64,000 nucleotides of DNA from an uncultured Ignavibacteria bacterium (GCA_964570765.1 CAZMZF010000011.1:3629-67628), one strand, 5' to 3'. Shown: positions 1,137 through 21,135, numbered from the stretch's first letter. Numbers and translations: made by a program. The notes: a model not told the origin generated them from the letters alone.

Positions 1137-1358
1137 TCTTTATTTGGAGTGCATTAACCACGTTAATGCCTTGCTCCCAGCAGTAAAATATGCGGATGAT
1201 AACATCCGCTTCGAGCAAGGGTATCGGGTTTTATGCCCGATGAATTAACGGTTCGACAGGCTCACCGTCCTGAGCAAAGCCGAAGGAAAGATTTATTGCT
1301 GGACGTTGGTCTCCTGACCAACGTCTGCCTGAAAACGGAATTAAGCGATTTATTGAAG

Positions 1359-1397
1359 ATTGAATATATAAAGTGAAAAAAGGTTGTTATTATAAAT
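1359..1397 (+). repeat. Family F composite repeat, partial copy ('attgaatatataaagtgaa..ggttgt..ataaatc')
   Basis: Matches the first half of the longer copies at 4554-4640 (same orientation) and 41959-42045 (reverse complement). Confidence 0.7.
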
Positions 1398-1590
1398 CTT
1401 TGGGAAAATCCGGGAAATGAATCCGCAGGATTAGGAGTAAGATATACTTAGGTGAAATGTTTCCGAGCTAACGGTTAAGGCCAAAAGAAGTCCCGCAGGG
1501 CGGGATTTGGATGGTAATCTTTTGGCCTGTGTTAGGCGACGTTTTGGTAAAGCTCTTATGTCATAGAACGGTTGTTTACATTTCATAACT

Positions 1591-3240
1591 CTATAGGTCT
1601 TTTCTTCTTGCACGCCAGCGTTTTACTATTCGGCTCACATCCATGTCTTTAATACCTTTAGCCCAACACTCGGCAAACTTAACATCTGCGCTGTCAGGTT
1701 GAGGGTCAGGAAAATCTACTATAACCCTCGTAGGCATTACTACAGAATCCCCAACAATAAGAGCTTCCCCAGTTCTGAGCGACGGTACCATGTCCATAAG
1801 TCCGGCCAACGAATCGGGAACAAGACGACGAACATAATTCTGGTCGTCAGGATTGGTGAGACGCATCACAATAAAGGTGTTGCACTGTGAAATAACGGTT
1901 TCGGAAAGTTCTTTTGGCCGTTGGCTCACGACCATTATTCCAATTCCATATTTCCGTCCCTCTTTTGCGAGCCGCTCTACCGCTATTTTCGCTGCTGAAA
2001 ACTTAGCTTCTGGGCGGTTAGGAATGTAGTTGTGTGCCTCCTCAAATACCATCAAAATGGGAAATTGTTTCCTGTCTGGATTCCAAAAATTAAACTCATA
2101 AACGACACGAGAAATAACCGACGCTACCACACTGACAGCTTCGAAAGGAATACCACTTAGATCAATCACAGTCATTCTCTTTCCAGTATCAATAGAAAGG
2201 TATTCTTTAAGCAATTGAGGAAGACTGGCGTTCCCAGAGTATCGTTTAGGTGAGAACATAAATCGAAACCTGGGGTCATTGGTCTTACTGTCGAAACGAA
2301 TCAAAAACCGATCAAAAACTCCGTTGAGTGGCCCCTTCTTCTTTCCAGAAGACGTGCCAGGCACCATCTCTGTGTTCCAATCGCGGATTTGCTGGAGCAT
2401 CCCCTGAAGATCAAAGTAAATGGGTGAATCAACGGTAACTGCATTGCCAAGTCCAAGTTTTTCCTCCTTATCAGTATTCTGTCGAGCCTGTAGGAGCGCA
2501 TCTCGGAGACCAGTGATCTGGTTATGAGCAGTAAACTCAGTTATATCAACAGCTAGGTCTTGAAATTCTTCAAAGTTTAGTAGCCAATAGGGCAACTCCA
2601 CTTTGTCGGCTTCAATGAGTTGAGCGTGGTTAGGAAATGCGTTTGCATATTCTCCATGCAAATCTATCACGAGTATATGTGTATCTGGATATTTGTCAAT
2701 TGTGTGCTGGAGGATACTTGCCACCGTGCAAGATTTTCCGCATCCCGTCGTCCCGAGAATGGCTGTATGTCTACCGAAAAAGCGATCTACGTGTATGAAT
2801 GCCCGTTGGTCTTCCGCCTGAGCCAAACAGGCAAAAGAGAATCCCTGACTGACGAATTCTGAGAAGATTTCTTTAAGTTCATCTAAACCAACCATTTTTA
2901 CTTTTTGCCCGACGTTCGGGTATATGGCAACCCCACGACTAAATTGCCCATTGTGACTTAGAGTGCCTATGAGGAGACACTCAGCTACTTTCTTGCTAAT
3001 AGTCTCGCCGGCAGCTTCTTGGCCCGGTTTCATTGAAGGCGTAACATCAAGCATGCGAATGTTCGCCACTGTCCCAATGATATTAAGGTCTCGGAAAGGG
3101 ATTTTTACATGTGAGCCCGGCTGACCTGGATAATAGTCACCGTCTAGTGGAACTGTGGTGTCGACCGTCAATTCGACTATAACACGGTTTCCACTAACCT
3201 CAATGACATAGCCGATTTCTGTTTCTGGAGTCTTTGCCAT
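1591..3240 (-). CDS. HerA-like FtsK/HerA-family ATPase, partner of the SIR2 protein in a SIR2-HerA defense pair
   Basis: An N-terminal HAS-barrel-like region is followed by Walker A 'ILGTTGCGKS' and a C-terminal 'VVSQRPKELSETVISQCNTFIVMRL' motif. The likely start is the ATG at 3240, preceded by a GGGGAG RBS, rather than 3270. The upstream SIR2 gene ends in TAA only 2 nt before it, consistent with translational coupling. Confidence 0.8.
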   Translation of the reverse strand: MAKTPETEIGYVIEVSGNRVIVELTVDTTVPLDGDYYPGQPGSHVKIPFRDLNIIGTVANIRMLDVTPSMKPGQEAAGETISKKVAECLLIGTLSHNGQFSRGVAIYPNVGQKVKMVGLDELKEIFSEFVSQGFSFACLAQAEDQRAFIHVDRFFGRHTAILGTTGCGKSCTVASILQHTIDKYPDTHILVIDLHGEYANAFPNHAQLIEADKVELPYWLLNFEEFQDLAVDITEFTAHNQITGLRDALLQARQNTDKEEKLGLGNAVTVDSPIYFDLQGMLQQIRDWNTEMVPGTSSGKKKGPLNGVFDRFLIRFDSKTNDPRFRFMFSPKRYSGNASLPQLLKEYLSIDTGKRMTVIDLSGIPFEAVSVVASVISRVVYEFNFWNPDRKQFPILMVFEEAHNYIPNRPEAKFSAAKIAVERLAKEGRKYGIGIMVVSQRPKELSETVISQCNTFIVMRLTNPDDQNYVRRLVPDSLAGLMDMVPSLRTGEALIVGDSVVMPTRVIVDFPDPQPDSADVKFAECWAKGIKDMDVSRIVKRWRARRKDL

Positions 3241-3242
3241 GG

Positions 3243-4319
3243 TTATTTCTCCCCCAGAGATGGAAGCCACTTCGCAAATTTTTCAAAAGCCCACAAATCT
3301 GTAACTTCACTTTGGTCGTTGCCATCAATAATCGTTCTTTCTTCATTTATTACACTGAGTTTAGGATGAGTAGACCTACAAGCAAGGGCGTCTATCGGCT
3401 CTTTGGAAAGCACCAAAAGAGAAAGACCCTTGTCGAGACCAGAAAATATATACTGGTTCAAGTGCTCATCCGCAAACCGATAACCAATACATATCAATAG
3501 ATTTGCTTCGTTAACCGCCGCACTAAATCTGCGAAAGAGCCAATCAAAAGGAGGACGGATGGATTCAGCATACTTGAGCCTCGACGGATAAATGATTAAT
3601 GAAGTCCTCTTTGATTCTAACGTTGGTTTTTCTTCGTAGAATTGGCCGTTAGATTCAAACCAACTGATTGATCCATGAAGTTTATATAGTCTAATGTGTT
3701 GAGCAGAGGGCTCAAAACGTGGGGTTTGCGCATGAGTTGTTGCCTTTCCAATGTCATAGTCAAAACAGCACGGATTCCATCGGCGGTGGAAAAAACCTTC
3801 GAACCCATTGATTGCAACTATATGCGATTCCTCACAAGCCAACTCTATCAACAAATCGTAGTTGGTTGTGAAGATTTGTACTGGAGGTGCCTTTTCCGCC
3901 GGTTCTGCCTCCCGACGACTTACTATGCGGAGCATGAAGTCCTTATGGTATTCCGTTGGGCCATCAACCTTCAAGATATTTTGGATACATTGACAAACAT
4001 CCTCGAAGGTCGTCTTAAACCGCTCTTTGTCACGATGTTCCGAACCTGCCCCACTCAAACGATGGTATAATTCAGAAAGAACCTCCTCTATGTTAGGATT
4101 TTCTATACTATTATCAGTCAAGGACCGTATGATCTCGTCAAACGTCGTACTGCGGGATACATTGTATAATTTGGATCGAACCAAATCCCTCAACTCAGAA
4201 ATACTTGGAAGCCCAGCACAGAACGATGCACCACCACCCAGAAGAAAAACAGTATTAGGTTCTCTTATCTTCTGTATTAGAGTTTCTTTCAATGTATGTT
4301 TCTTTGTCACTCCTATCAC
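3243..4319 (-). CDS. SIR2-like (DHS-like NAD-binding) protein, NADase effector of a SIR2-HerA system
   Basis: The N-terminal 'FLLGGGASFCAGLPSISEL' is a Rossmann-like SIR2 signature. At 358 aa it is the right size, and its stop sits directly upstream of the HerA start. Confidence 0.7.
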   Translation of the reverse strand: MIGVTKKHTLKETLIQKIREPNTVFLLGGGASFCAGLPSISELRDLVRSKLYNVSRSTTFDEIIRSLTDNSIENPNIEEVLSELYHRLSGAGSEHRDKERFKTTFEDVCQCIQNILKVDGPTEYHKDFMLRIVSRREAEPAEKAPPVQIFTTNYDLLIELACEESHIVAINGFEGFFHRRWNPCCFDYDIGKATTHAQTPRFEPSAQHIRLYKLHGSISWFESNGQFYEEKPTLESKRTSLIIYPSRLKYAESIRPPFDWLFRRFSAAVNEANLLICIGYRFADEHLNQYIFSGLDKGLSLLVLSKEPIDALACRSTHPKLSVINEERTIIDGNDQSEVTDLWAFEKFAKWLPSLGEK

Positions 4320-4553
4320 CTACTGATTCCCTATAATAATAAAGCCAAAATGTCGCCTAACTCGTTCATATCCGCAATTATTGCGTATATACCCCTGATT
4401 TTGGGGTTGTAGACGAACCTGTTTCGTTTATTCCGATTCTGGCTGAAGTTCCGATCCTACGGATCCGTTTCTCGGAGAAACGGATTTCACATCGTCTCTA
4501 CGAGCCGTAAGGCTTTTATCGGCCTGAGCCTCAGTCTGCCTAAGGCAGACAAA

Positions 4554-4640
4554 ATTGAATATATAAAGTGAACAGGGGTTGTCAATATAAATCCTAAAAT
4601 CAATGACGGATGACGAATTTCGAATAACGAATAAAAACAA
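4554..4640 (+). repeat. Family F composite repeat, full copy
   Basis: A roughly 87-bp element, 'attgaatatataaagtgaacaggggttgtcaatataaatcc...atgacggatgacgaatttcgaataacgaataaaaa'. It recurs at 1359 (partial) and as the reverse complement at 41959-42045. Confidence 0.8.
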
Positions 4641-4686
4641 AAGACTGCAGCCTTGCCACTCCCGTGCCAACGGAAGGTTGTCTTTT

Positions 4687-4782
4687 GTAGTTGCTCGATT
4701 CATCGAGCAAAAAGCCCAATGAATTGGGCAACTACTTTTAGCCTCGCCTTTGGGCGACCCTGAAAGGGTCGCACTACGAAAA
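4687..4782. repeat. Cluster of GC-rich palindromic elements (GTAG-REP family G plus family C hairpin)
   Basis: The outer stem is 'gtagttgc...gcaactac', enclosing the palindromes 'tcgattcatcga' and 'cccaatgaattggg'. It is followed by 'tagcctcgcctttgggcgaccctgaaagggtcgcactacgaa', the family C hairpin with a 3-nt loop. Confidence 0.75.
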
Positions 4783-4937
4783 TTCGTATTCCAGCCTTGC
4801 CCACTCCTAATTTGGACCACATGAAAGGCGGGATACGACTATTTTTATTGACTTCTCTTTCCTTGAGATTTAATTTAACTTTTTGATGGAATATTTATTA
4901 AGTCATTAGGATTTGATCTTTCAGACTGGAGGTTTCT

Positions 4938-6596
4938 ATGGAATATAGACCGATAAAAGCGCCGCGTGGAACAACTTTATCTTGCAAGGGTTGGCATCAG
5001 GAGGCGGCTTTAAGGATGCTTCAGAATAATTTGGATGAAGAGGTGGCGGAAAACCCTCAAGAGCTTATCATCTATGGGGGGAGTGGCAAAGCGGCGCGAA
5101 ACTGGGAGTGTTACTATGCTATTGTTGAGGCTTTGAAAAATTTAGAGAATGATGAGACCCTTTTGGTCCAGTCCGGCAAGCCGGTTGGGATCTTTAAGAC
5201 CCATTCCTATGCCCCCAGAGTATTAATCTCAAATTCGATGATGGTTCCTGCCTGGGCTAACTGGGAGAAGTTCCGGGAGCTTGAAAGATTGGGCTTGATT
5301 ATGTTCGGGCAGATGACTGCTGGCTCCTGGATTTATATAGGGACCCAGGGAATTTTGCAGGGGACTTATGAGACCTTTGCCTCAGTGGCAAAAAAACATT
5401 TTACCGGAGACCTGAAAGGGAAATTTGTTCTAACTGGTGGAATGGGTGGTATGGGTGGAGCTCAACCTTTAGCAGTAACGATGAATGGCGGTGCAGTTCT
5501 TTGTGTAGAGGTGGATAAGAAAAGAATAGAAAGGAGACTTTCCAAAGGTTATTGCGATAAAATGGTGGAAAGCTTGGATGAGGCTCTTGATATTGTTTTA
5601 AAAGCTAAAAATAAAGGAAAAGCTATTTCCGTGGGGTTAGTGGCTAATTGTGCAGATACTCATCCAGAGATCTTAAAAAGAGGGATAATCCCGGATATCG
5701 TAACTGACCAGACCAGTGCGCATGATGAGTTAAATGGTTATGTCCCTGCAGGGATACCCTATGAAGAAGCTTTAAGATTGAGAAAGGAAAATCCAGAAGA
5801 GTATATCAAAAGGTCGATGGAATCTATTGCTAAACATGTTGAATCGATGTTAGGATTTTTAAAAGCTGGCTCAATAGTATTTGATTACGGAAATAATATA
5901 AGGGGTCAGGCAAAAAAGGCTGGAATAGAAAATGCTTTTGATTTCCCTGGATTTGTTGTCGCATATATCAGACCTCTATTCTGTCTGGGCAAGGGTCCTT
6001 TTAGATGGGCGGCTTTGTCTGGAGATCCTGAGGATATAAAGATTACTGACAAAATAGTATTAAGGGAATTCAAAGAAGATGAGCCTTTGTGCAGATGGAT
6101 AAAATTGGCTTCCAAAAAAGTCCAGTTCCAGGGCTTGCCTGCAAGAATCTGCTGGCTGGGTTATGGTGAAAGAGCTCATTTTGGAGATATTATTAACAGA
6201 TTGGTCAAAAGAGGAAGGATAAAAGCTCCGGTGGTTATCGGCAGAGACCATCTGGATTGCGGGTCTGTAGCTTCACCCTACAGGGAAACCGAAGGGATGA
6301 AAGATGGCTCAGATGCAATTGCAGACTGGCCTATCTTAAACGGACTTTTAAATGCGGTTTCAGGTGCCTCCTGGGTCTCAGTTCACCACGGAGGAGGAGT
6401 AGGAATCGGGAACTCGATTCATGCCGGGATGGTGATAGTGGCAGATGGCTCAAAGGAGATGAAGTTGAGATTAGAAAGAGTTTTAACCAATGATCCGGGC
6501 ACAGGAGTTGCAAGGCACGCGGATGCTGGATATGAAGAAGCAATTAAAGTGGCAAAAGAAAAAGGGATAAAGATACCAATGATGAAAGAAAAGTAA
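4938..6596 (+). CDS. hutU: Urocanate hydratase
   Basis: Full-length urocanase-like translation (552 aa) with a GGAGG RBS 7 nt upstream. Confidence 0.93.
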
Positions 6597-6733
6597 GAAG
6601 TGAGACGGGAGACGAGACTTTGTGCCCGCAAGGTCTCCTGACCTTGCGGGGAAACTAATCCAGTCGGGTCAGGGGACCCGACTGGCACAGGTAAGATAAT
6701 AAGTAAGATGTGAGATATGAGACGGAAAAGAAA

Positions 6734-8014
6734 ATGAGAAAAGTTACTCTTCTTATTAAAAACGCCAGACAGTTTTTGACTCTGTCTTCAGATAAAAAAG
6801 GTCCCCGCAGGGGGAGGGAGATGGAGGATCTGGGGTTGATTGAGGACGGGGCAGTGGCGATTTCCGGGAAAAAGATTGTAACAGTAGGAAAGACTAAAGA
6901 TGTTTTAGCTAAAGTCAAGTCCGAATTTGGATCCTGCGGAATAGATAAGAAGACAAAAATCATAAATGCTGAAGACAAAGTCGTTCTTCCCGGATTTGTG
7001 GACTGTCATACTCACCCGGTTTTTGGGGCTACCAGGGAGGAGGAGTTTGAATTAAGGATAAAAGGCAAAAGTTATGAGGAGATTGCCCAGACTGGAGGCG
7101 GAATCAGGTCGAGTGTAAGGTCTGTGCGGGAATTATCAAAGGAAAAGTTAATTAAACTTGCTTTACCTCGCTTAGATAGATTTTTGTCCTATGGCACTAC
7201 CACCATTGAGGCAAAATCAGGTTATGGGCTTTCCCTGAAGGATGAGATAAAGATTCTGGAAGTAATTAAAAAGTTAAATCAAATTCACCCTCTGGATTTA
7301 GTTCCTACTTTTTTGGGGGCACATGAAATCCCGGATGAGTATAGAGAGAGAAGAGAGGAATATATCGATTTATTAGTCAAGCAGATGATTCCGGAGGTGG
7401 CTAAAAGGAAACTGGCTTCCTTCTGTGATGTTTTCTGCGAAAGAGGAGTCTTTAGCTTAGATGAATCCAGAAAAATATTAGAAACAGCTAAAAGTTATTG
7501 GTTAAAGCCAAAACTTCACGCAGATCAATTGACTCCTTCAGGCGGTGGAGAATTAGCTGCCGAAATTCAAGCAATCTCAGCTGACCATTTGGAATTTGTT
7601 TCTGATTCCGGGATTGACAGGATGAAAGAATCTGGAACAATCGCAGTCCTTTTACCGGGCTCAGTTTTCGGATTGGGTAAAGAAAATTACCCTCCCGCAC
7701 GTAAAATGATTGATAAAGAATTGCCTGTGGCTTTAGCAACTGATTTCAATCCGGGTAGTTCTTTTACAGAATCAATGCCTGTTATCTTGAGTTTAGCTTG
7801 TCTCCGGATGAAACTCACTCCAGCAGAGGCTATAACTTCAGCCACTATTAATTCAGCCTATGCCATAGATGAAGGTGATTCGATTGGCAGTTTAGAGCCG
7901 GGTAAGAAAGCAGATATTGTAATCTGGAATGTCAAAAACTATAAAGAGATACCGTATCACTATGGAGTTAATCTGGTGGATAAGGTTATTAAAAACGGAG
8001 AGATAATCAGGTGA
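6734..8014 (+). CDS. hutI: Imidazolonepropionase
   Basis: Contains the 'DCHTHPVFG' metal-binding motif of amidohydrolase-family HutI. The start is uncertain (6710 or 6734). Confidence 0.88.
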   Translation: MRKVTLLIKNARQFLTLSSDKKGPRRGREMEDLGLIEDGAVAISGKKIVTVGKTKDVLAKVKSEFGSCGIDKKTKIINAEDKVVLPGFVDCHTHPVFGATREEEFELRIKGKSYEEIAQTGGGIRSSVRSVRELSKEKLIKLALPRLDRFLSYGTTTIEAKSGYGLSLKDEIKILEVIKKLNQIHPLDLVPTFLGAHEIPDEYRERREEYIDLLVKQMIPEVAKRKLASFCDVFCERGVFSLDESRKILETAKSYWLKPKLHADQLTPSGGGELAAEIQAISADHLEFVSDSGIDRMKESGTIAVLLPGSVFGLGKENYPPARKMIDKELPVALATDFNPGSSFTESMPVILSLACLRMKLTPAEAITSATINSAYAIDEGDSIGSLEPGKKADIVIWNVKNYKEIPYHYGVNLVDKVIKNGEIIR

Positions 8015-8541
8015 AGAAAGGGATTCTCCATTCGCTATTCGCTGTTGGCTATTTGCGTTTTTTTACCCTGTCTACTGTCTCCTGTCTCCTGTCTACTTTT
8101 TTCTCTTGTGGTCCCTATTCTTTTACTGGCTCCGGCTTGCCCGGCATAAAGACCATTGCTATCCCTTTGTTTGAAAACCAGACCCAGGAATACGGGATAA
8201 GAGAGGAATTGACAGAAAAGTTAGTTCAGGGGTTTGTTCAGGATAATACTCTGAAAGTGGTGGGTGAAAAAATCTCAGATTCAATCCTCAGGGGGACGAT
8301 TTTAAAATACGAGAAAGTTGCCCATACCTTTGATGAAAAAGAGAATGTGAAAGAATATATAGTCAGGATTTATGTCAAAGTTGCATTAGAGGATAAGAAA
8401 CATAATAAAAATATCTGGGAGGAGGAAAATCTTCAAGGCTGGGGGATTTATTCAGCAGATTCAACTGAGGTATATGGAAAGACTAAAGCGATTGATAAAT
8501 TAGCTGAAGACATTGTGAATAAAACGGTGAAAGGGTGGTAG
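8011..8541 (+). CDS. Lipoprotein, possibly LptE-like
   Basis: A signal peptide with lipobox 'FFSCG' is followed by 'LPGIKTIAIPLFENQT', reminiscent of LPS-assembly lipoprotein LptE. The ORF overlaps the hutI stop. Confidence 0.45.
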   Translation: MKKGILHSLFAVGYLRFFTLSTVSCLLSTFFSCGPYSFTGSGLPGIKTIAIPLFENQTQEYGIREELTEKLVQGFVQDNTLKVVGEKISDSILRGTILKYEKVAHTFDEKENVKEYIVRIYVKVALEDKKHNKNIWEEENLQGWGIYSADSTEVYGKTKAIDKLAEDIVNKTVKGW

Positions 8542-8688
8542 GTTTTAGGTAGTAGGTGATAGGTAGTAGGTGGTAGGGGAAAACCTATAACCTTCTACCT
8601 GCCACCTATGACCTGCTTTACGAAATTTATTGACAAATCAAGAGAGGTTTAGTAGATTTTAGAAAAGATAGTTTAAAGTGAGGTTAAA

Positions 8689-9636
8689 ATGAGAGAAAAG
8701 AAGATCTTTGCAGGAACAGTTATATTTTTACTGTTACTTTCCTCAATTAGCTGGGGAACAAATTCGAAGGTTGGAACCACTGCTTATCCGTTCTTAAAAG
8801 TTGGTGTAGGAGCCAGGGCTTCTGCTCTGGGTGGTGCTTTTGTGGGTTTATCAGATGATGAGTCAGCCTTATATTTTAACCCGGCTGGTCTTTTGCAGTT
8901 GAAAGGCAATCATTTCATCACCTATTACAACAACTTTATTACTGATATTCAATCTGGCTTTGTGGGTTATATCCATCCCTATTCAGATAAAGTCAACTTA
9001 GGTTTATCTATAAACTATTTCAACTACGGCTCAATGGAGGAGACAGATAGTTCTGGCAAAAGCTTAGGGACTTTTGGAGCGGGGGATTTGTGTTTTGCCT
9101 TCTCCTATGCCAGAAATATTAAGCCCAGACTGGACTTGGGTGCAAATGTAAAATTCATCCTGGAAAATGAGAGCGCTCAGGGTCATTCCTCAGATGCCTT
9201 AGCTTTAGATTTAGGTGGATTTTATCAGCTCAAAGATGAGCGCACCAGATTTGGGGCAGTAGTTCAAAACTTAGGATTTCAGCTTAAAGGATTTACCTCA
9301 AGCCATAAAGACCCTTTGCCCACTATTGTAAAAGCAGGGATCTCACACAACTTAAAAGAGGTTCCTCTCCTGGTGGCAGGTGATGTGTCTTTACCCTTTG
9401 ATAATGATATCTACTTCAGTTTAGGAGGGGAGATAACCTATTTTAAGCCTCTTTTTTTAAGAATAGGTTGGAGCTCTTTTGGTGAAAATTTCAAGACTGG
9501 CTCAGATAAAGATAAATGGGCTGGGGTTTCTTTGGGTTTTGGAGTGCACTGGAGAAAATATAAATTCGATTATGCTTATTCCTCCTATGCAGATTTAGGA
9601 GGGATACACCGGATAACCATAGCCGGTGGGATATAA
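8689..9636 (+). CDS. Outer-membrane beta-barrel protein, PorV/PorQ/FadL-like
   Basis: It has a signal peptide, and the N-terminal motif 'GARASALGGAFVGLSDDESALYFNPAGL' is characteristic of the PorV/PorQ-type OMP family. Confidence 0.5.
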   Translation: MREKKIFAGTVIFLLLLSSISWGTNSKVGTTAYPFLKVGVGARASALGGAFVGLSDDESALYFNPAGLLQLKGNHFITYYNNFITDIQSGFVGYIHPYSDKVNLGLSINYFNYGSMEETDSSGKSLGTFGAGDLCFAFSYARNIKPRLDLGANVKFILENESAQGHSSDALALDLGGFYQLKDERTRFGAVVQNLGFQLKGFTSSHKDPLPTIVKAGISHNLKEVPLLVAGDVSLPFDNDIYFSLGGEITYFKPLFLRIGWSSFGENFKTGSDKDKWAGVSLGFGVHWRKYKFDYAYSSYADLGGIHRITIAGGI

Positions 9637-9661
9637 ACTTTTATATTCAGGAGGGGAAAAG

Positions 9662-9919
9662 ATGCCAGAAGAAGAAATTGGAAAAGTAGCGGATTATTTT
9701 GCCAAAATCGGTGTAGCCGCCATTGATGTTACTAAAGGCATTCTAAAGGTTGGAGACACAATCCATATCAAAGGACATACCACAGATTTTGAACAAACGG
9801 TTGATTCAATCCAGATCGAGCATCAAAGTGTCCCGGAGGCAAAGCCTGGAGATTCTATCGGCATAAAGGTGAAAGATAAGGTCAGAGACCACGATATCGT
9901 GTATAAGGTACTTCCTTAA
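9662..9919 (+). CDS. Small hypothetical protein (translation-factor-like beta-barrel?)
   Basis: ORF with an AGGAGGGG RBS; I recognise no secure motif. Confidence 0.35.
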   Translation: MPEEEIGKVADYFAKIGVAAIDVTKGILKVGDTIHIKGHTTDFEQTVDSIQIEHQSVPEAKPGDSIGIKVKDKVRDHDIVYKVLP

Positions 9920-9928
9920 CTTAGAGAG

Positions 9929-10002
9929 TGTCATTCTGAGGGAGCGTAGCGACTGAAGAATCCGAAGATTCTTCCCCCGCCACTGGCGGGGTCAGAATGA
10001 CA
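9929..10002. repeat. Composite palindromic element (family J)
   Basis: The outer inverted repeat 'tgtcattctga...tcagaatgaca' encloses the hairpins 'gaagaatccgaagattcttc' and 'cccgccactggcggg'. Confidence 0.7.
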
Positions 10003-10079
10003 ATTAATTAGTTCCAGTTTTACAGTGTTACTGAAAGGTCTGACCTGAGAGAAACATTACTAATTAACAAGAGGATAAT

Positions 10080-10571
10080 TTGATAAAAATTCCAGAAGGG
10101 GTGGATTTTAAAGATATTCCATTGGAGGAGAAATATAAAAGCGCAACCACCGGACTTTTACAAAGAGTTCATACTATTTATAAAGGGATTTATAAAAATT
10201 TTGGTCAGCAGGGATTAGACCTGATTAGAGAAGTAAGCGAAACCTACGGAAAGGAGATTGCGGAAAGGGGCAGGAAGAGGGTTAAACCGGGTGATGTGAA
10301 ATCCGCAGGGCTTTTTCTCATGCGGGTTTTTGATATGATTAACTGCGAGGGGGAGGTAACAGAATTTTCAGACGACAAAGTGGTCATTCGCCTTTTCAAA
10401 TGTCCCTACCCTTTTGACGACCCCAAAATATGCGAAGCGCATACCACAATGGAAAAGGCCCTAATAGAATCCTTAGGTGAAAACTTCTCTTATCACATCG
10501 CAGAATCTATTCCCGCAGGTGGCAGATTCTGCGAACATGTGATTAGCTTAAAAAGTAGGGACAGAACATAG
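10080..10571 (+). CDS. Hypothetical protein (probable TTG start)
   Basis: A 163-aa ORF with several Cys/His residues ('KCPYPFDDPKICEAH') and no confident family assignment. A terminator follows it. Confidence 0.4.
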   Translation: MIKIPEGVDFKDIPLEEKYKSATTGLLQRVHTIYKGIYKNFGQQGLDLIREVSETYGKEIAERGRKRVKPGDVKSAGLFLMRVFDMINCEGEVTEFSDDKVVIRLFKCPYPFDDPKICEAHTTMEKALIESLGENFSYHIAESIPAGGRFCEHVISLKSRDRT

Positions 10572-10592
10572 TTCTGTCCTGTTTTATTTTTT
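10558..10592 (+). terminator. Rho-independent terminator
   Basis: Hairpin 'gggacagaacatagttctgtcc' followed by 'tgttttatttttt'. Confidence 0.7.
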
Positions 10593-10600
10593 AGTGTAAA

Positions 10601-10735
10601 AAACGTACAGTCGGGCTTTATGCCCGACGGGTGGCTGGTCGTAGGGCGAACCTTTCAGGTTCGCAATGCGAGGCTCAAAGCCTCGCGCTACGAAATTCAG
10701 AAAGCGGGAGGGGACAAGCCCCTCCCCTACGAAAA
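10601..10735. repeat. Tandem array of four GC-rich hairpins
   Basis: The four hairpins are 'gtcgggctttatgcccgac', 'ggcgaacctttcaggttcgc', 'gcgaggctcaaagcctcgc' and 'ggaggggacaagcccctcc'. The first resembles 'atcgggttttatgcccgat' at 1222. Confidence 0.65.
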
Positions 10736-10807
10736 ATTTTTGTGGGGGCGTATTGTAATTACTTTTTTGTTTTACATTTATACCATTTCCCCCGTAATAA
10801 CAAAAAT

Positions 10808-11551
10808 ATGATCGACACCATAACTTTCGACCTCTGGAATACTCTGATATATTTCTCGCCTGAAGACAATCTCAAATTTAAAAATAAAAGAGTTGAGGGA
10901 TTTATCGAAGTTCTAAAAAATATCGGGGTTAATTTGTCCAGAGAAGAGATGGAGAAAGCCTATGATGAGAGTTCCGAGAGATATAAGCCTATCCGGGAAA
11001 GAGAAGAGGATATCTCTACCCGGGAACAGGTTCAGATAATCTTAGACTGTTTAGGGACTCCTGGTTTTAAAGAATTTGATGAAGAGGTTTTGAATAAATT
11101 AGAGGAGGTTTTAGCAAATCCGATACTTTCAGAATTACCATCCCTGACCGAAGGGTGTGAGGAGATATTAAGTTATTTAGATAGAAAAAATTATAAGATA
11201 GGTCTTATCTGTAATACCGGCAGGACGCCAGGAAAAGTTTTAAGGGAAGTGCTTAAGAGAAGAAATATATTTCAATATTTCAAAGTTATAACTTTCTCGG
11301 ATGAATTAAGGATACGCAAACCGAATCCTGAAATCTTTTTTTCTACACTGGAATCACTTGATAGTTCCCCAGCCTCTTCTTTACACATAGGAGATTTACT
11401 GGAATCTGATATTTTAGGAGCTAAAAGATGCGGGATGATAACGGGCTGGCTTTGCCCGGACCGGGATGGATGCCAGATAGATTTTCTGCCTGAGCAAAGA
11501 CCAGATTTCATTTTGCCTAATCTGACTTCTCTTAAAAAAATTTTAATGTAG
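10808..11551 (+). CDS. HAD-superfamily hydrolase
   Basis: HAD motif I 'FDLWNTL' lies near the N-terminus and a C-terminal 'HIGDLLESDILGA' is motif IV-like. The annotated ORF extends upstream to 10631 through the repeat array, which is probably not translated. Confidence 0.75.
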   Translation: MIDTITFDLWNTLIYFSPEDNLKFKNKRVEGFIEVLKNIGVNLSREEMEKAYDESSERYKPIREREEDISTREQVQIILDCLGTPGFKEFDEEVLNKLEEVLANPILSELPSLTEGCEEILSYLDRKNYKIGLICNTGRTPGKVLREVLKRRNIFQYFKVITFSDELRIRKPNPEIFFSTLESLDSSPASSLHIGDLLESDILGAKRCGMITGWLCPDRDGCQIDFLPEQRPDFILPNLTSLKKILM

Positions 11552-11654
11552 ATAGAGTCTAATTCCTCAAGAAGTATAACCTAATATATTAATTCTGCCG
11601 ATATATTTTATGCGAATATAACTTTAAGGGGGATAGAGGTCTTGGATTATTTTC

Positions 11655-11683
11655 TTGACAGCATCAAGAAAAACTTTATATTA
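11655..11683 (+). promoter_or_regulatory. Sigma70-like promoter for pfk (TTGACA-N16-TATATT)
   Basis: Read directly: 'ttgaca' at 11655-11660 and 'tatatt' at 11677-11682, about 30 nt upstream of the RBS and ATG at 11711. Confidence 0.5.
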
Positions 11684-11710
11684 AAAAACTCTGAAACGAG
11701 GTGAGTTAGA

Positions 11711-12763
11711 ATGAAAATCGGTATTTTAACTGGTGGAGGGGATTGTCCGGGGCTCAATGCAGTTATCCGGGCAGTGGTGAGAAAGTCAATCCTTTTTTAT
11801 AATTCAAGAGTAATCGGGATACTGGAGGGATGGAGAGGTCTTTTAGAGGAGGGATTAACTGAAGACTTAGACTTAAACCAGGTTTCAGGTATTCTGCATC
11901 GCGGTGGGACCATTATCAAAACCTCTCGTACAAATCCTTATAAAGTTGAAGATGGGGAAAGAAGGGTTATAGAGAATAAAAGGAAAATGGGGCTGGATGC
12001 AATTGTAGCAGTAGGGGGAGAGGATACCTTAGGAGTTGCCGCCAAGCTTTATCAGGCAGGGGTGAAGATTGTCGGGGTTCCCAAGACTATAGATAATGAC
12101 CTGGCAATGACAGATTATACTTTTGGATTTGATACTGCAGTGAACATTGCTATGGAGGCTATTGATCGGGTACATACTACTGCAGAATCGCATAACCGGG
12201 TAATGGTGGTTGAGGTTATGGGCAGACATACCGGCTGGATAGCCATTGAGTCCGGTATTGCCGGAGGCGCAGATATTATTCTGATTCCGGAAAAACCGAT
12301 GAATTTAGATAAAGTCTGTGAGAGTATCCGGAAGAGGCATGCGCGGGGTAAAGATTTCAGCATCGTGGTAGTAGCTGAGGGAGCCAGGATAGCTTTAGGG
12401 GAGGAGGATCAAAAGAAAGAAACTTTCATTGTGCAGGACGAGTGTAAGGATGCCTTTGGTCATGTGAGATTGGGAGGAATCGGGAAGATTTTAGCCACCG
12501 AGATAGAGAAGAGAACCGGTTTTGAGAGCAGATTCGTGATCTTAGGTCATATCCAGAGAGGTGGTACGCCCACAGCTTTCGATAGGGTTTTAGGGACCCG
12601 TTTTGGAATAGCGGCCGTAGATTTAGTCCATCAGGGAAGATTCGGAAAGATGGTTAGTTTGCAGGGTAATAAAATTATCCCTGTGGATCTTAAAGAAGCA
12701 GTTGCCAGCACCAAATATGTGGATGAGGAGCTTTATAATATTGCAGATATTTTCTCAGCTTAA
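11711..12763 (+). CDS. pfp: 6-phosphofructokinase, pyrophosphate-dependent type by signature
   Basis: 'GGGDCPGLNAVIRA' is the PFK fold. The residues that fix phosphoryl-donor specificity read 'GGEDTLG' and 'PKTIDND' (E. coli ATP-PFK has GGDGS and PGTIDND), and the Asp and Lys substitutions are the established PPi-PFK determinants. Confidence 0.85.
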   Translation: MKIGILTGGGDCPGLNAVIRAVVRKSILFYNSRVIGILEGWRGLLEEGLTEDLDLNQVSGILHRGGTIIKTSRTNPYKVEDGERRVIENKRKMGLDAIVAVGGEDTLGVAAKLYQAGVKIVGVPKTIDNDLAMTDYTFGFDTAVNIAMEAIDRVHTTAESHNRVMVVEVMGRHTGWIAIESGIAGGADIILIPEKPMNLDKVCESIRKRHARGKDFSIVVVAEGARIALGEEDQKKETFIVQDECKDAFGHVRLGGIGKILATEIEKRTGFESRFVILGHIQRGGTPTAFDRVLGTRFGIAAVDLVHQGRFGKMVSLQGNKIIPVDLKEAVASTKYVDEELYNIADIFSA

Positions 12764-12802
12764 ACCCATAATCCACTTTTTAGACGTATAAAGTTTATAA
12801 AG

Positions 12803-13474
12803 ATGAAAAATTTATTATTCAGGATAGTTTTTTTATCACTTATAACCTTTTTCACAGGTTTGCTCTGGGCTGAGTTCAGTTGGGGAGTTGATCTCAGCTC
12901 TAAAGATTTGATTGGTTTTAGAGGGGGAGTCTGGAAAGTTGAAAAGGCTAAGGAATTGCCCTCAACCATTGAGGCAAAAACTTACACCCCCTATATTGAG
13001 CTTTTTATTTCCCACGGGATAAGAAAAGGTTTTTCCTTAGAATTTGACTTTGGAGCAGGTAACCGGGGGGATACTAAATTTATAATTCCAGAGGGATCTT
13101 ACTGGGAAAACTGGAATTTATACCCCATCTCCGGAAAGGTCAAATACTCCTTCTTGTCAATTTACCCCCATAAGATTTATCAACCCTATTTTGATTTAGG
13201 TGTAACCTTTTTAACCAGCACCAGCACTTATAATGACCCCTATTATCTGGATGTTACCTATGTAAATACAAAAACTACCTTGGGAGCTTTAGCCGGGTGG
13301 GGTTTGGATATTAACCTCTCTTCAAGGATATTATTTAACCTCGATTTTCAATATCGCTGGGTAAGTTTCAATAAGGAGGTTGCCGGGATTAAAAATTATA
13401 GCGGTCCCCAGTTGACTTTTGGCTTGGAATATATTATTAAACATAAAAAAGAAAAAGGTATCAATAAGCCTTAA
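12803..13474 (+). CDS. Hypothetical secreted/outer-membrane beta-barrel protein
   Basis: It has a signal peptide and alternating aromatic/hydrophobic beta-strand patterning, but no named family. Confidence 0.4.
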   Translation: MKNLLFRIVFLSLITFFTGLLWAEFSWGVDLSSKDLIGFRGGVWKVEKAKELPSTIEAKTYTPYIELFISHGIRKGFSLEFDFGAGNRGDTKFIIPEGSYWENWNLYPISGKVKYSFLSIYPHKIYQPYFDLGVTFLTSTSTYNDPYYLDVTYVNTKTTLGALAGWGLDINLSSRILFNLDFQYRWVSFNKEVAGIKNYSGPQLTFGLEYIIKHKKEKGINKP

Positions 13475-13486
13475 GGAGGAAAAGAC

Positions 13487-14494
13487 ATGTCTATAAAAAT
13501 TGGTATCAACGGATTTGGCAGGATCGGGAGGCTGGTTTACCGGGCAGGTTATCAAAATCCCAATCTTGAGTTTGTAGCTACCAACGATGTGACTGATGCA
13601 AAAACCTTAGCTCATCTTTTAAAATATGATTCAGTGCACGGAAAGATGAATGCTGAGATAAAAGTAGAGGGGAACAAGATAATAGTAAATGGTAAAAGCT
13701 TGGAAGTTTATAGCGAGAAAGACCCGTCAACCCTTCCCTGGAGCAAATTGGGAGTGTCGATCGTGGTGGAATCAACTGGTAAATTCACCGATGGTAAGTC
13801 CGCGATGAAACATATCGAAGCTGGTGCTAAAAAGGTTTTAATCTCATCTCCGGCTAAAAAATCTGACGTCCCGGTTCAAACAATTGTTTTAGGTGTAAAT
13901 GATGACAAATTCGACCCGAAGAAATTCCAGATCTTTACTATTGGCTCCTGCACCACCAACTGTCTGGCACCGGTTGCCAAGGTTATCAATGACAACTTTG
14001 GTATAAAGTATGGCTTTATGACCACTATCCACGCCTATACCAATGACCAGCGGATATTAGATACCCCTCATAAGGATTTAAGAAGGGCCAGGGCAGCCGC
14101 TGTGTCTATGATCCCTACTACTACGGGAGCGGCTAAGGCACTTTCTTTGGTCCTGCCGGAATTAGAAGGAAAATTGGATGGGGTAGCAGTCAGGGTCCCG
14201 GTGTGCAACGGCTCCTTAGTAGATCTGGTCTGTGAAACTGAAAAAGAGGTGAGTGTGGAAAGTGTTAATACTGCATTTAAAAAGGCGTCAGAAGGGAAGA
14301 TGAAAAAGTATATCGAGTATTGTGAGGACCCGATTGTCTCCTGCGACGTGATAGGAAATCCTCATTCATCCATCTTCGATGTGGCCTCTACTATGGTCAA
14401 GGGGAAAAATCTTTTGAAGGTCTTTGCCTGGTATGATAACGAATGGGGATTCTCCTTGAGGATGATTGAGATGATGGAGTTGATGGGGGAATAA
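13487..14494 (+). CDS. gap: Glyceraldehyde-3-phosphate dehydrogenase
   Basis: Starts with 'MSIKIGINGFGRIGR' and carries the 'SCTTNCLAP' active site. Confidence 0.95.
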   Translation: MSIKIGINGFGRIGRLVYRAGYQNPNLEFVATNDVTDAKTLAHLLKYDSVHGKMNAEIKVEGNKIIVNGKSLEVYSEKDPSTLPWSKLGVSIVVESTGKFTDGKSAMKHIEAGAKKVLISSPAKKSDVPVQTIVLGVNDDKFDPKKFQIFTIGSCTTNCLAPVAKVINDNFGIKYGFMTTIHAYTNDQRILDTPHKDLRRARAAAVSMIPTTTGAAKALSLVLPELEGKLDGVAVRVPVCNGSLVDLVCETEKEVSVESVNTAFKKASEGKMKKYIEYCEDPIVSCDVIGNPHSSIFDVASTMVKGKNLLKVFAWYDNEWGFSLRMIEMMELMGE

Positions 14495-14592
14495 AAAGAA
14501 AGGTTCAATCCGCCACAGGTGGATAAAGGTTTAAAGGTTCAAGGGAGAAAATAAAGGAAAAGAAAAAAAATATAAGAAGAGGGTGAATAGAT

Positions 14593-15789
14593 ATGAATAA
14601 ATTGACCATAGATGATCTGAAGATGAAAGATAAAAGGGTCCTGGTCAGAGTTGATTTCAATGTGCCTTTGAATGAGAAAAAAGAGGTAGCAGATGATACC
14701 CGTATCGTGGAATCTTTGCCCACGATCAAAAAAATCTTAAATGATGGCGGAAAAGCTATCCTGATGTCCCATTTAGGCAGACCTAAGGGGAAAGACCCTA
14801 ATTTGAGTTTGGCTCCAGTAGCTAAGAGATTGGAGAAGCTTTTAGGCAAACCGGTTAAATTTGTGGATGATTGTATTGGTGAGAAAGTGGAAAAAGCTGT
14901 TTCAGAGCTTAAGAGCTCTGAATGTCTGCTCCTGGAAAATCTGAGGTTTTATCCTCAGGAGGAGAAAAATGATCCGGAATTTGCCAAGAGCTTAGCTAAA
15001 TTAGGTGAGGTTTATATTAATGATGCTTTTGGCACTGCTCACCGTGCTCATGCCTCAACTGAAGGGGTAACTAAATATATTAAAGAATGCGCGGCTGGAT
15101 ATCTTATGCAAAAAGAGCTTAAATATCTGGGTATGGCATTAACCCAGCCCAAAAGACCCTTTATAGCTATCTTAGGAGGGGCAAAGATCTCTGGCAAAAT
15201 AGATGTTATTAAAAACCTTCTGGATAAGGTAGATACCATTTTAATTGGTGGTGGCATGGCTTTCACTTTCTATAAAGCCTTAGGGAAAGAGGTGGGCTCT
15301 TCCCTTTTAGAAGGGGACAAAGTAGAATTAGCCAAGGAGATCTTAGAAGAAGCAGAAAAAAAGAAGGTCGATTTAGAGCTTCCAGATGATTTCATAATTG
15401 CACCTGAAGCTAAGGAGGATACCTCCACCCGGGTGGTGGATAAAGACAATATCCCTGCTGGCTGGAAAGGGTTAGATATAGGTCCTGAAACTCTAAAACT
15501 TTTCAAGGAAAAGATTGAAAATGCCAAAACCGTTGTCTGGAACGGGCCAATGGGTGTTTTTGAAGTGGATAAATTTTCTAAAGGAACCATAGGAATTGCT
15601 GACCAGCTTGCCCGGATAACCAAGAAAGGTGCGACCACAATTGTGGGTGGTGGGGATTCAGTTGCGGCTTTAGCCAGGGTAAATTTAGAAAAGAAGATGA
15701 CTCACGTCTCCACTGGTGGAGGAGCTTCTTTAGAATTCTTAGAGGGAAAGACTCTACCAGGAGTGGCGGCTTTAACTGATAAAAAGTAA
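14593..15789 (+). CDS. pgk: Phosphoglycerate kinase
   Basis: 398 aa with typical PGK motifs ('ILMSHLGRP', 'GGGDS'). Confidence 0.95.
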   Translation: MNKLTIDDLKMKDKRVLVRVDFNVPLNEKKEVADDTRIVESLPTIKKILNDGGKAILMSHLGRPKGKDPNLSLAPVAKRLEKLLGKPVKFVDDCIGEKVEKAVSELKSSECLLLENLRFYPQEEKNDPEFAKSLAKLGEVYINDAFGTAHRAHASTEGVTKYIKECAAGYLMQKELKYLGMALTQPKRPFIAILGGAKISGKIDVIKNLLDKVDTILIGGGMAFTFYKALGKEVGSSLLEGDKVELAKEILEEAEKKKVDLELPDDFIIAPEAKEDTSTRVVDKDNIPAGWKGLDIGPETLKLFKEKIENAKTVVWNGPMGVFEVDKFSKGTIGIADQLARITKKGATTIVGGGDSVAALARVNLEKKMTHVSTGGGASLEFLEGKTLPGVAALTDKK

Positions 15790-15911
15790 ACTATATTCTT
15801 TGTCCGGGAAATGGATCCACAGGAGAGGAGAAAAAAAAGAAATTGAACGAAAAAAACAATCAAAAATCCGAGTCTGGATTTAAGGGACCTAACAATCGCC
15901 ATAATTCAGGG

Positions 15912-16685
15912 ATGAATAAGAAAACCAGACCTCTTTTAATCGCCGGGAACTGGAAGATGTTCAAAGACCATAAGGAAGGTTTCGCTTTGGCTTTTGCTCT
16001 CAAGGAAAGATTAGCTGATATATCCACCATCCAGGTGGTCTTATGTCCACCGTTCACCTCTTTACAAGCAGTATCCTCAGCCATAGAAGGCTCCGCTTTC
16101 TTTTTAGGTGCTCAAAATGTTCACTGGGAAAAGGAGGGTGCTTTTACCGGAGAGATATCCTCTCAGATGCTTTTATCTTTAGGCTGTAAATATGTTATAA
16201 TTGGTCATTCGGAAAGAAGACTTCTCTTTCATGAAAGTAACAAAATAGTCAACCTTAAGCTCAAAACTGCTTTAAAAGAAGGGCTAAACCCGATACTCTG
16301 TATTGGTGAGACCCTGCAGGAAAGGGAAAAGGGGAAAACCGAAGAGATAGTTGAGGAACAGCTCAAAGGAGCTTTTGAGGATTTGACTCCCGAGGATGTA
16401 GGGAAGATAGTTTTAGCTTATGAGCCGGTCTGGGCAATTGGCACAGGTAAGACCGCCACACCCAAGCAAGCCAACGATGTGCACCTTTTCATCCGTAGAA
16501 AACTTGAGGAAAGATATGGTCAGGAGATAGCCGGTAATATGAGAATACTCTATGGTGGCTCGGTAAAACCGGAGAATGCTAAAGACCTTTTAAAGGAACA
16601 AGAGATGGATGGTGCCCTGGTCGGGGGTGCAAGTTTAGATCTGGATTCTTTTGAGAAGATCGTAAGAAGTGGTTTAGATTTGTAG
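15912..16685 (+). CDS. tpiA: Triosephosphate isomerase
   Basis: Contains 'LIAGNWKM', 'IIGHSERR' and 'AYEPVWAIGTG'. The start is placed at the internal ATG at 15912, because the annotated ORF carries an implausible 23-aa N-terminal extension. Confidence 0.9.
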   Translation: MNKKTRPLLIAGNWKMFKDHKEGFALAFALKERLADISTIQVVLCPPFTSLQAVSSAIEGSAFFLGAQNVHWEKEGAFTGEISSQMLLSLGCKYVIIGHSERRLLFHESNKIVNLKLKTALKEGLNPILCIGETLQEREKGKTEEIVEEQLKGAFEDLTPEDVGKIVLAYEPVWAIGTGKTATPKQANDVHLFIRRKLEERYGQEIAGNMRILYGGSVKPENAKDLLKEQEMDGALVGGASLDLDSFEKIVRSGLDL

Positions 16686-16721
16686 CTTTCAATATTCATC
16701 TTTGGTTGAAAAGGAGGTATT

Positions 16722-17129
16722 TTGTACGCTTTTTTGATTCTTTTGCATGTGATTATATGTGCCGCTTTAATAATCACAGTCCTTTTACAGTCGAGCAAAG
16801 GAGAGGGATTAGCTGGTGCTTTTGGTGGCTCAGGGATTACCGGTGCGGTTTTTGGTGGAAGGGGTGCGGCTACATTTCTCTCTAAGGCTACTACAATTTT
16901 AGCGGTCGCCTTTTTTATTAGCTCCATCGCCTTGACTTTTATAACTCCCATTACTGGCACCAGGGGTGGTGGTGCAGGGAAAAGTGCAATTACCCAGGAG
17001 GCACAAAAAGAAAAAGGACAGGGCTCTTTGCCTGCAACCGGGATTCCAGGGACAACTCAGGAAACTCAGCCTCAATCGGACAAACCAGCTGAGCTACCTC
17101 CTCCGCCTCCAGAAGGTCAAGGGAAGTAG
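16722..17129 (+). CDS. secG: Preprotein translocase subunit SecG
   Basis: The N-terminal TM region plus 'LLQSSKGEGLAGAFGG' are typical of SecG, and it occupies the conserved gap-pgk-tpi-secG position. Confidence 0.85.
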   Translation: MYAFLILLHVIICAALIITVLLQSSKGEGLAGAFGGSGITGAVFGGRGAATFLSKATTILAVAFFISSIALTFITPITGTRGGGAGKSAITQEAQKEKGQGSLPATGIPGTTQETQPQSDKPAELPPPPPEGQGK

Positions 17130-17165
17130 TTTTTCTCATCTACTTAAAACTTAAGTGAAAGTTTT

Positions 17166-17248: not shown

Positions 17249-17311
17249 TTTTGTTATGGAGTGCATCCATTTGGATGCATTTTTTTATTAAAGTATTTTT
17301 AAGAGGAATTT

Positions 17312-18669: not shown

Positions 18670-18674
18670 TAGAT

Positions 18675-21109: not shown

Positions 21110-21135
21110 AGTTTAGCTCTTTTTATCCAATTCTG

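Follow-up and report, generated by a model that had tools for sequence, protein, structure and literature searches.

A predicted SIR2-HerA defence cassette, probably acquired horizontally, beside a putative duplicated host promoter in an uncultured Ignavibacteria bacterium

How did a compact pair of putative anti-phage genes come to lie between lon and hutU on a chromosome whose close relatives have neither the genes nor this gene order? We studied this question in a 64,000-nt stretch of DNA from an uncultured Ignavibacteria bacterium (GCA_964570765.1 CAZMZF010000011.1:3629-67628; hereafter, the window), in which two neighbouring minus-strand genes encode predicted proteins of the SIR2 and HerA families. 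A preliminary description of the locus had proposed a SIR2-HerA defence system residing on a GC-rich, horizontally acquired island that was inserted between lon and hutU and bracketed by direct copies of a repeat marking insertion hot spots. Our results support the defence assignment and the horizontal origin, whereas the composition, the site of insertion and the role of the repeat have to be read differently. Very probably, the region carries a functional, horizontally acquired SIR2-HerA abortive-infection cassette, accompanied by a captured copy of a host promoter and by an inversion that produced the present gene order.

The two co-oriented minus-strand open reading frames (ORFs), with the SIR2 and HerA peptides quoted for them earlier, are both present. 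The gene for the predicted SIR2-family NAD hydrolase (NADase) occupies positions 3243..4319 (minus strand). Its longest ORF, starting at GTG 4319, indeed has the 358 aa first ascribed to it, but the gene calls on identical contigs and the alignment of homologous loci back a start at GTG 4310 (minus strand), which is preceded by AGGTGAT and yields 355 aa. The gene for the HerA-family ATPase (1591..3240, minus strand, 549 aa) follows after a gap of 2 nt: at the junction (3238..3245, minus strand), the TAA stop of SIR2 is followed by cc and by the ATG of HerA, confirming the arrangement from which translational coupling had been deduced, and the GGGGGAG ribosome-binding site of HerA is located within the 3' end of SIR2. 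The spacing of 2 nt is kept in most homologous cassettes (loci used for comparison are given by L numbers; in L092 and L181, the genes overlap instead), and the pairing of SIR2 with HerA is present at every homologous locus examined. The two genes form a tightly coupled operon.

The assignment to SIR2-HerA defence holds, with PADLOC, Pfam, PDB, fold and motifs in agreement. The SIR2 protein matched the PADLOC SIR2 models over its full length (expectation value, E, 1.4e-53) as well as Pfam SIR2_2, and its sequence matches in PDB were SIR2 subunits from the SIR2-HerA systems of S. aureus, E. coli and Paenibacillus. A Rossmann motif, GGGAS, is located at residues 28-32, and the catalytic residues N153, D155 and H215 (358-aa numbering) are found in TTNYD (151-155) and KLHGS (213-217). 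N153 and H215 align to N226 and H287 of SaSir2, where the H287A substitution abolished NADase activity (PMC11514289); N153, D155 and H215 align to N163, D165 and H212 of the Paenibacillus protein (PMC11472057), and all three residues are invariant in 59 SIR2 homologs. The AlphaFold2 model of SIR2 has a predicted local distance difference test score (pLDDT) of 89.4 and a predicted template modelling score (pTM) of 0.90. In the Foldseek comparison of this model to PDB, the best 39 matches were, without exception, SIR2 chains from SIR2-HerA entries, either of complexes or of SIR2 by itself, with template modelling (TM) scores of 0.63-0.75 for full-length SIR2 chains; DSR2, KomC-type and ThsA sirtuins came next. 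Both the SIR2 fold and the catalytic Asn and His are present.

HerA, in turn, matched the PADLOC HerA model over its full length (E 5e-157), contains the Pfam domains DUF87 and HerA_C, and has a Walker A motif, GTTGCGKS (residues 163-170), and a Walker B motif, VFEE (398-401). Its PDB matches are HerAs of defence systems (E 2.5e-99 to 2e-29), whereas models of conjugative ATPases reached E ~1e-4 at best; on this evidence, the protein groups with defence HerAs and not with the conjugative VirB4/TraB type. The three best solved relatives are 8ZIQ, 9C1M and 8XAU. Two of them, 9C1M and 8XAU, come from DUF4297-HerA systems (E ~5e-95), and the solved HerAs that have a SIR2 partner (1.6e-80 to 2e-29) rank behind this DUF4297 type. 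The best NCBIfam model, HerA_antiphage_2, scored 440 bits versus a cut-off of 850, and SIR2_antiphage scored 115 bits versus a cut-off of 500 with SIR2; therefore, the pair represents a divergent subtype and not the curated one. Sir2-HerA systems have been split into subtypes that share 13-22% identity (PMC13434337), and the status of a divergent subtype fits this split. Taken by its sequence, the pair is an intact predicted SIR2-HerA anti-phage system. It should be noted that the defence assignment itself is routine, as SIR2-HerA is known, structurally solved and already subtyped.

Is the pair of foreign origin? The preliminary description had inferred this from base composition, and that argument does not stand. 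The GC content of the pair is 44.1%, compared to 42.7% in the lon fragment, 43.6% in hutU and 40.4% in the whole window; 60-nt windows over the pair have a mean GC of 44.2% (standard deviation 5.5). The GC content of third codon positions (GC3) is similar as well, i.e., 0.40-0.41 in the pair, 0.44 in lon, 0.40 in hutU and 0.38 in hutI. The SIR2-HerA block is not compositionally distinct from its neighbours, and a GC-rich island is rejected because the composition of the pair equals that of neighbouring core genes. The high spot reported at 2701-2760 does exist; however, it was measured at 55% GC and not ~58%, and it is a local spike, unrepresentative of the pair. Reliance on one 60-nt window thus gave a wrong reason for a right conclusion, namely horizontal transfer, which makes it a cautionary case.

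The horizontal acquisition is supported by the absence of the pair in relatives and by near-identical copies in unrelated hosts. Relatives were found by a protein search with context look-ups and by a scan of metagenomes for Lon. Judging by the names of the closest HutU homologs, which are not uniform, the source organism probably belongs to Zixibacteria. The pair is absent from four metagenome-assembled genomes, L094, L096 and L098 (HutU 93-94% identical) and L100 (Lon 89% identical), i.e., it is not part of a conserved core in related genomes. The SIR2 family forms a tight clade of ~58 clusters at identities of at least 49%, followed by a sharp fall to at most 33%; homologs with a named host are found in a Deltaproteobacteria genome (78%) and on a closed Bathyarchaeota chromosome (77%). 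The DNA of the cassette is 93.9% identical to L090 over 2850 nt, and ~82% identical over ~2770 nt to L085 (the Bathyarchaeota chromosome copy) and to L087 and L091 (two other backgrounds), with unrelated flanks in all of these cases. The cassette copies have a GC content of 44.7-45.1%, and their host flanks have 33%, 43%, 49% and 50%. The number of synonymous substitutions per site (dS) to L090 is 0.11-0.13, and the ratio of nonsynonymous to synonymous rates (dN/dS) is ~0.2 for SIR2 and 0.07 for HerA, indicating that both genes are kept by selection. The pair is, as far as these comparisons of sequence and context can tell, horizontally acquired, accessory and mobile. The DNA identity of 82-94%, together with a GC content that stays constant although the hosts, an archaeon among them, range from 33 to 50% GC, clearly points to recent, possibly cross-domain, movement of a defence module that has no recombinase of its own.

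The dN/dS of SIR2 is ~3x that of HerA in comparisons of the window to L085, L087, L090, L091, L179 and L181. Between the window and the Bathyarchaeota copy, dS is 0.56 for SIR2 and 1.16 for HerA, a mismatch that hints at recombination inside the cassette. The neighbours of the cassette vary by locus and include SbcCD-like genes, AddAB-like genes, a FokI-type restriction-modification pair, RadC followed by a type III restriction-modification pair, and a tyrosine recombinase. Genes for DNA-end processing and restriction are recurrent among these neighbours (L085/L086, L087-L089, L091-L093 and L179-L181), and SbcCD-like pairs stand beside the cassette in two unrelated contexts. RadC is likely to have been a former neighbour of the cassette in the present genome as well.

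Searches for a carrier gave no clear candidate. A protein search of IMG/VR found no relative of the cassette, a search of phage DNA found no match to it, and a search of plasmids found short matches only (66-71% identity, inside HerA). In the search for an empty site by means of HutU in reference genomes, the nearest genome was only 86% identical, and its upstream region was not syntenic. No integrase or transposase adjoins the pair among the ORFs of the window, and no tRNA genes were found near it.

What exactly moves between hosts? The unit spans 1531-4361 (2.83 kb) and is bounded by a 17-nt inverted repeat, followed by an intrinsic terminator. The left arm (GTTAGGCGACATTTTGG; 4345..4361, minus strand) is located 35 nt upstream of the SIR2 start, and the right arm (1531..1547, plus strand; CCAAAACGTCGCCTAAC on the coding strand) is located 43 nt past the HerA stop; the consensus of the repeat is GTTAGGCGAC(A/G)TTTTGG. 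The 3' structured element that follows (1480..1528, minus strand) consists of an outer stem, GGCCAAAAG/CTTTTGGCC, around an intrinsic terminator, TCCCGCcctGCGGGA with a subsequent T-run (1505 to 1491). A terminator inside an outer stem is located downstream of the right arm in every copy; elsewhere, the outer stem is GTGTTTG/CAAACAC, so that the sequence differs and the pairing is kept (covariation). The DNA homology to the closest copy, L090, starts at 4361, i.e., at the left arm, and ends ~70 nt past the HerA stop, and most other copies are homologous only up to the HerA stop; the cassette homology is delimited by 4361 and 1518-1592.

The window, L087, L090, L091 and L179 have two recognisable arms each. 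In L181, the right arm is clear and the left arm is weaker, and in the archaeal copy L085, one of the seven copies, the arms are degenerate. At one position of the arms, a compensatory change has turned G:C into C:G. A search that allowed for no more than two mismatches found the 17-mer nowhere else in 2.37 Mb of fetched loci, with the exception of one chance-like match, and its eight single matches in viral contigs, none of them paired, were judged to be at chance level. No target-site duplications were found outside the inverted repeat, and Rfam matches in the lon-HerA spacer (1050-1650) were at chance level only.

The 17-nt arms could be either a DNA recombination site or a means of pairing the two untranslated regions in RNA. 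If they act in RNA, the 5' and 3' untranslated regions would form a processing or stabilising stem of the RNase III type, and the cassette would spread by ordinary recombination within larger mobile DNA. The position of both arms within the predicted transcript, which would run from the promoter or the cassette leader to the terminator, is consistent with such a stem, as are the terminator on the 3' side of every copy, the homology that reaches upstream of the left arm in four copies, and the compensatory change that keeps the pairing. However, this is a single covarying position, several copies are mismatched (13-19 of 27 positions paired), and the DNA homology to L090 starts exactly at the left arm. 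We know of no precedent for a stem of this kind in SIR2-HerA, and we regard this explanation as rather unlikely.

The arms also contain GTTAGGC and GCCTAAC heptamers. The core and inverse-core sites of integrons have the consensus GTTRRRY/RYYYAAC, which these heptamers fit, and the unit could accordingly be viewed as an integron-type gene cassette, or as a related element that a recombinase mobilises in trans; its ends would form an attC-like site when the DNA is circular. In this view, G|TTAGGC of the left arm would be the core site; GCCTAAC of the right arm would be the inverse core, with an L''/L' stem, a variable hairpin and AACG|TTA behind it. The complementarity between the left end and the right inverse core is perfect, as in a linearised cassette, and the outer stem covaries among the copies. 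A long hairpin results when the joined ends are folded (z -9.2), in a test that is circular because the arms were picked for their complementarity. The short 5' untranslated region, the site on the 3' side and the lack of an own recombinase fit as well; integrons and attC clusters have been reported in Archaea (PMC9668308), in line with a cross-domain transfer, and a recombinase resembling XerA and integron integrases is encoded 680 nt downstream of the Bathyarchaeota copy. That recombinase, however, scored 112 bits versus a cut-off of 220. Furthermore, the complementarity of 17-18 nt exceeds the 7-nt boxes, and the core boxes are located on the inner, not the outer, side of the palindrome. 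A hairpin, CGAAC..GTTCG, is common to four copies upstream of the left arm, and therefore the homology does not end at G|TT. There are no attC-like sites or arrays nearby at any locus, the 17-mer being confined to the two cassette ends in the 2.37 Mb, and no integrase adjoins the pair in the window. An integron-type origin is, in our opinion, distinctly unlikely.

A further proposal combines several of these elements: the 2.8-kb unit would be a recombinase-less mobile defence cassette that used its terminal inverted repeat, including the integron-like core and inverse-core boxes, as the recombination site for spread between Bacteria and Archaea and captured the duplicated host promoter after landing. 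In this complete form, we consider it unlikely. Nevertheless, the conserved 17-nt inverted repeat is a concrete candidate for the movement or processing of minimal cassettes.

How would the cassette be expressed in its present host? The ~40-bp motif noticed earlier was found in direct orientation at 1359-1398 and 4554-4593 (copies 1 and 2; 0 matches were expected by chance in 100 shuffles), and a third, inverted copy was confirmed at 41957-42071. Read on the opposite strand, this 40-nt repeat has the features of a near-consensus sigma-70 promoter. Copy 2 (4554..4593, minus strand) contains TTGACA and TATATT separated by 16 nt, with 11 of 12 matches, and points into SIR2-HerA, ~235 nt upstream of the SIR2 start codon; no terminator-like site was found between copy 2 and SIR2. 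Copy 3 (41957..42071, plus strand; promoter core 42006-42045) has the same TTGACA-16-TATATT arrangement and ends 1-2 nt before a cyclic di-AMP (c-di-AMP) riboswitch at 42047-42185 (Rfam RF00379, 79.5 bits versus a gathering score of 38), which is the sole Rfam match in the window at gathering thresholds. The operon downstream of the riboswitch (42377-46418) encodes an amino-acid permease, a 73-aa ORF, Usp, two TrkA-domain proteins and OmpH. At the orthologous site of L096 and L098, the hexamers, the spacing and the following riboswitch sequence are the same, and this conserved placement of promoter and riboswitch identifies copy 3 as the native promoter of the operon. Copy 1 (1333..1400, minus strand; motif 1359-1398) has the same promoter core but a degenerate -35 box, ATAACA, includes ~25 nt of the 5' end of the riboswitch, and faces the 3' end of lon.

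The homology between copies 2 and 3 spans 4551-4642, with ~50 nt of upstream sequence in common. The three copies are 82-86% alike, and orthologous copies in relatives are 73-89% alike. The best reading of the position and conservation of the repeat is that copy 2 now drives SIR2-HerA. Instead of marking insertion hot spots for accessory DNA, as had been suggested, the repeat would be the promoter of a c-di-AMP riboswitch operon, conserved in relatives.

Two observations concern the history of this promoter. The permease operon is divergent from hutU in relatives and has the same promoter there, with a tandem second permease in L096 and L098. The spacer of copy 1, ACCTTTTTTCACTTTA, is nearer to the promoters of the relatives, ACCTTTTTTTCGTATA (L096 6334-6373 and L098 7719-7758), than is the spacer of copy 3, ATCTTTTACTACCTCA, which may bear on the question of which copy is ancestral.

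The gene order in relatives clarifies the setting of the cassette. In L094, L096 and L098, the order hutU-hutI-lptE-porV...pfk-gap-pgk-tpi-secG corresponds to positions 4938-17129 of the window, and the permease/Usp/TrkA/OmpH/ATP-binding cassette (ABC) block, at 42377-52000 in the window, is located directly upstream, in divergent orientation. In L100, ~2 kb of hairpin modules and a dockerin-like ORF separate lon from an intact radC, after which come homologs of the window genes at 36725, 35447, 34087, 33086, 32221 and 31317, in reversed order and orientation. In relatives, lon adjoins radC and hutU adjoins the riboswitch-permease operon; hence, the adjacency of lon and hutU is derived. By this synteny, a single inversion would explain both junctions. 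Copies 2 and 3 (92 nt) and copies 1 and 3 (68 nt) form two pairs of inverted repeats, each 82% identical. As judged by synteny with the four relatives, one of these pairs bounds the inverted segment of 37-40 kb, which would be either 4643..41956 (copies 2 and 3) or 1401-42003 (copies 1 and 3). If the former was inverted, the cassette would originally have been located between lon and radC, beside a methyltransferase-nuclease gene (38340-40799) that L100 lacks; if the latter was inverted, it would originally have been located between hutU and the riboswitch, a region that is variable in relatives. The order hutU-copy 2-SIR2-HerA-copy 1 also occurs in Logan contigs of several sequencing runs, which confirms it independently. 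At the junction of radC and copy 3, the Logan contigs end 76 nt upstream of the permease gene, at a repeat. The homology to the spacer of L100 did not give exact breakpoints, as only short, shuffled hairpin modules match.

These data also bear on the view that a GC-rich island was inserted between lon and hutU and that the flanking direct repeats are att-like or target-site marks of a hot spot. In favour of this view, the pair is accessory and has direct repeat copies on either side, and relatives differ in what is located upstream of hutU (a kinase and an SH3 protein in L096, a 293-aa ORF in L098). Yet the GC content and GC3 of the pair equal those of its neighbours, and lon and hutU are adjacent in none of the four relatives, the inversion accounting for this adjacency in the window; the proposed insertion between them thus falls away. 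The repeats are located ~190 nt beyond the limits of cassette homology, and their copies are about as divergent from one another as orthologous copies are, so they are not a fresh target duplication. In relatives, the conserved role of the repeat is that of the riboswitch operon promoter, and, as stated above, the pair has no adjoining integrase or transposase. We consider an island of this kind very improbable. The placement of radC in a second island, next to the third repeat copy, is likewise not borne out, radC being a core gene in L100.

In our reading, a host promoter was duplicated beside the acquired cassette, and copies of it stand at the ends of the inversion; this would illustrate, in a concrete case, how a newly arrived defence operon becomes connected to the transcription of its host and how a chromosome is reshaped by repeats. 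Several orders of events were considered for the three copies, i.e., homologous exchange of copy 3 with either copy 2 or copy 1, duplication at a staggered break, and insertion into the native promoter; none of them accounts for all three copies.

Several features around the junctions deserve a description of their own. In the window, radC (40829-41517, minus strand) is split into two overlapping ORFs of 118 and 115 aa, and in L100 it is an intact 229-aa gene (13088-13777); the split indicates a frameshift, which could be due to a pseudogene or to a sequencing error. The neighbouring gene at 38340-40799 (minus strand) encodes an 819-aa protein with an N-terminal N6/N4 DNA methyltransferase and a C-terminal region resembling type II restriction nucleases (PADLOC REase_II, residues 645-791), an architecture that points to a restriction-modification fusion. 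L100 lacks this gene and has a Memo/AMMECR1 gene directly after radC.

The stacked hairpins said to fill both junctions of the pair were found, with DNA folding z-scores of -6.9 and -6.7 for the two junction regions, but they are not specific to the cassette. Hairpin modules are common to 13 of the 28 intergenic regions of the window (e.g., 17130-17412, 20238-20521, 31121-31316, 56143-56657 and 59711-59907) and occur in relatives; the lon-radC spacer of L100 (11114-13087) is full of the same modules in a shuffled order. Examples are CTACGGTGGCTACGCCAGACGTAGTCTCCG, TTGCTCGATTCATCGAGCAA and GTCCGCCTGAGGCGGAC, and the modules resemble a family of repetitive extragenic palindromic (REP) sequences or of miniature inverted-repeat transposable elements (MITE) that breaks short-read assemblies. 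A 130-aa ORF at 4428-4820 (minus strand), called as a gene in Logan assemblies, was treated as spurious; in view of its overlap with hairpin modules and the promoter repeat and of its lack of any Pfam hit, it is unlikely to be a real gene.

The findings described above, i.e., catalytic sites that are intact, the fold, the organisation as an operon, purifying selection and mobility, form the basis of the mechanism that we propose; its other parts (assembly into a complex, trigger, activity and promoter used) are what we infer. Following the studied SIR2-HerA systems (PMC11472057, PMC11514289, PMC13434337), a HerA hexamer would bind a SIR2 ring in a large complex, and the NADase would remain silent until phage infection. 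Upon infection, SIR2 would hydrolyse NAD+ by means of N153, D155 and H215, HerA would use ATP, with its ATP-dependent activities contributing, and the resulting depletion of NAD+ would arrest the infected cell. Judging by position, the operon would be transcribed from repeat copy 2, a duplicate of the host promoter of the c-di-AMP riboswitch and amino-acid permease, and the 37-40 kb inversion with promoter copies at its ends would have led to the present order of lon, cassette and hutU. The 2.83-kb unit itself moves between distant hosts.

A number of points weigh against this interpretation. SIR2 and HerA are both under the NCBIfam equivalog cut-offs, and the NADase activity, the formation of a complex and the protection against phages are predicted by homology, at ~20-23% identity to the solved SIR2s. 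The promoter is a consensus match only, in a region that has 4 promoter-like sites versus 7.2 expected in shuffles; there are several hairpins within the 235 nt between copy 2 and the start codon, and a promoter of the cassette itself may be located in the conserved 35 nt that precede SIR2. The junctions of lon with copy 1 and of radC with copy 3 are seen in this assembly only, as repeats interrupt the Logan contigs. Finally, the direction of the inversion was set by a three-to-one agreement of relatives, without an outgroup.

It is instructive to compare the locus to known systems. The solved SIR2-HerA references are those of E. coli Nezha (8J4U and 8SU9), Paenibacillus sp. 453MF (8W9L, 8WIV and 8WLD) and S. 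aureus (8YHO and 8YHX). With these, the pair shares the operon of SIR2 followed by HerA, the SIR2 fold with Asn, Asp and His, and the Walker A and B motifs of HerA. However, the SIR2 described here is only ~20-23% identical to the solved SIR2s, both proteins are shorter (355 aa versus 381-428 aa for SIR2, and 549 aa versus 562-696 aa for HerA), and the family is a separate tight clade, below the NCBIfam equivalog cut-offs. The DUF4297-HerA systems (8XAU and 9C1M; PMC11291478 and bioRxiv 10.1101/2024.10.24.620088) include the closest solved relatives of the HerA (E ~5e-95), yet the partner is a DUF4297 nuclease there and a predicted SIR2 NADase here.

Compared to integron cassettes, attC sites and integrase-less attC clusters, the unit is similarly compact, without an own recombinase, with a short 5' leader, a structured 3' site and GTTAGGC/GCCTAAC boxes at its two ends, and a cross-domain spread would be common to both, integrons being reported in Archaea (PMC9668308). 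In contrast to them, the window contains neither an array nor an integrase, a longer 17-nt repeat includes the boxes, and the upstream hairpin is shared beyond the presumed crossover. The rearrangement, in turn, resembles inversions between inverted repeats and those with duplicated breakpoints, as inverted copies (92 nt, 82% identical) are located at both ends of the segment. It differs from them in that the copies are too diverged to show recent homologous exchange, that a third, direct copy is left over, and that the repeat is a promoter region and not an insertion sequence or an rRNA operon.

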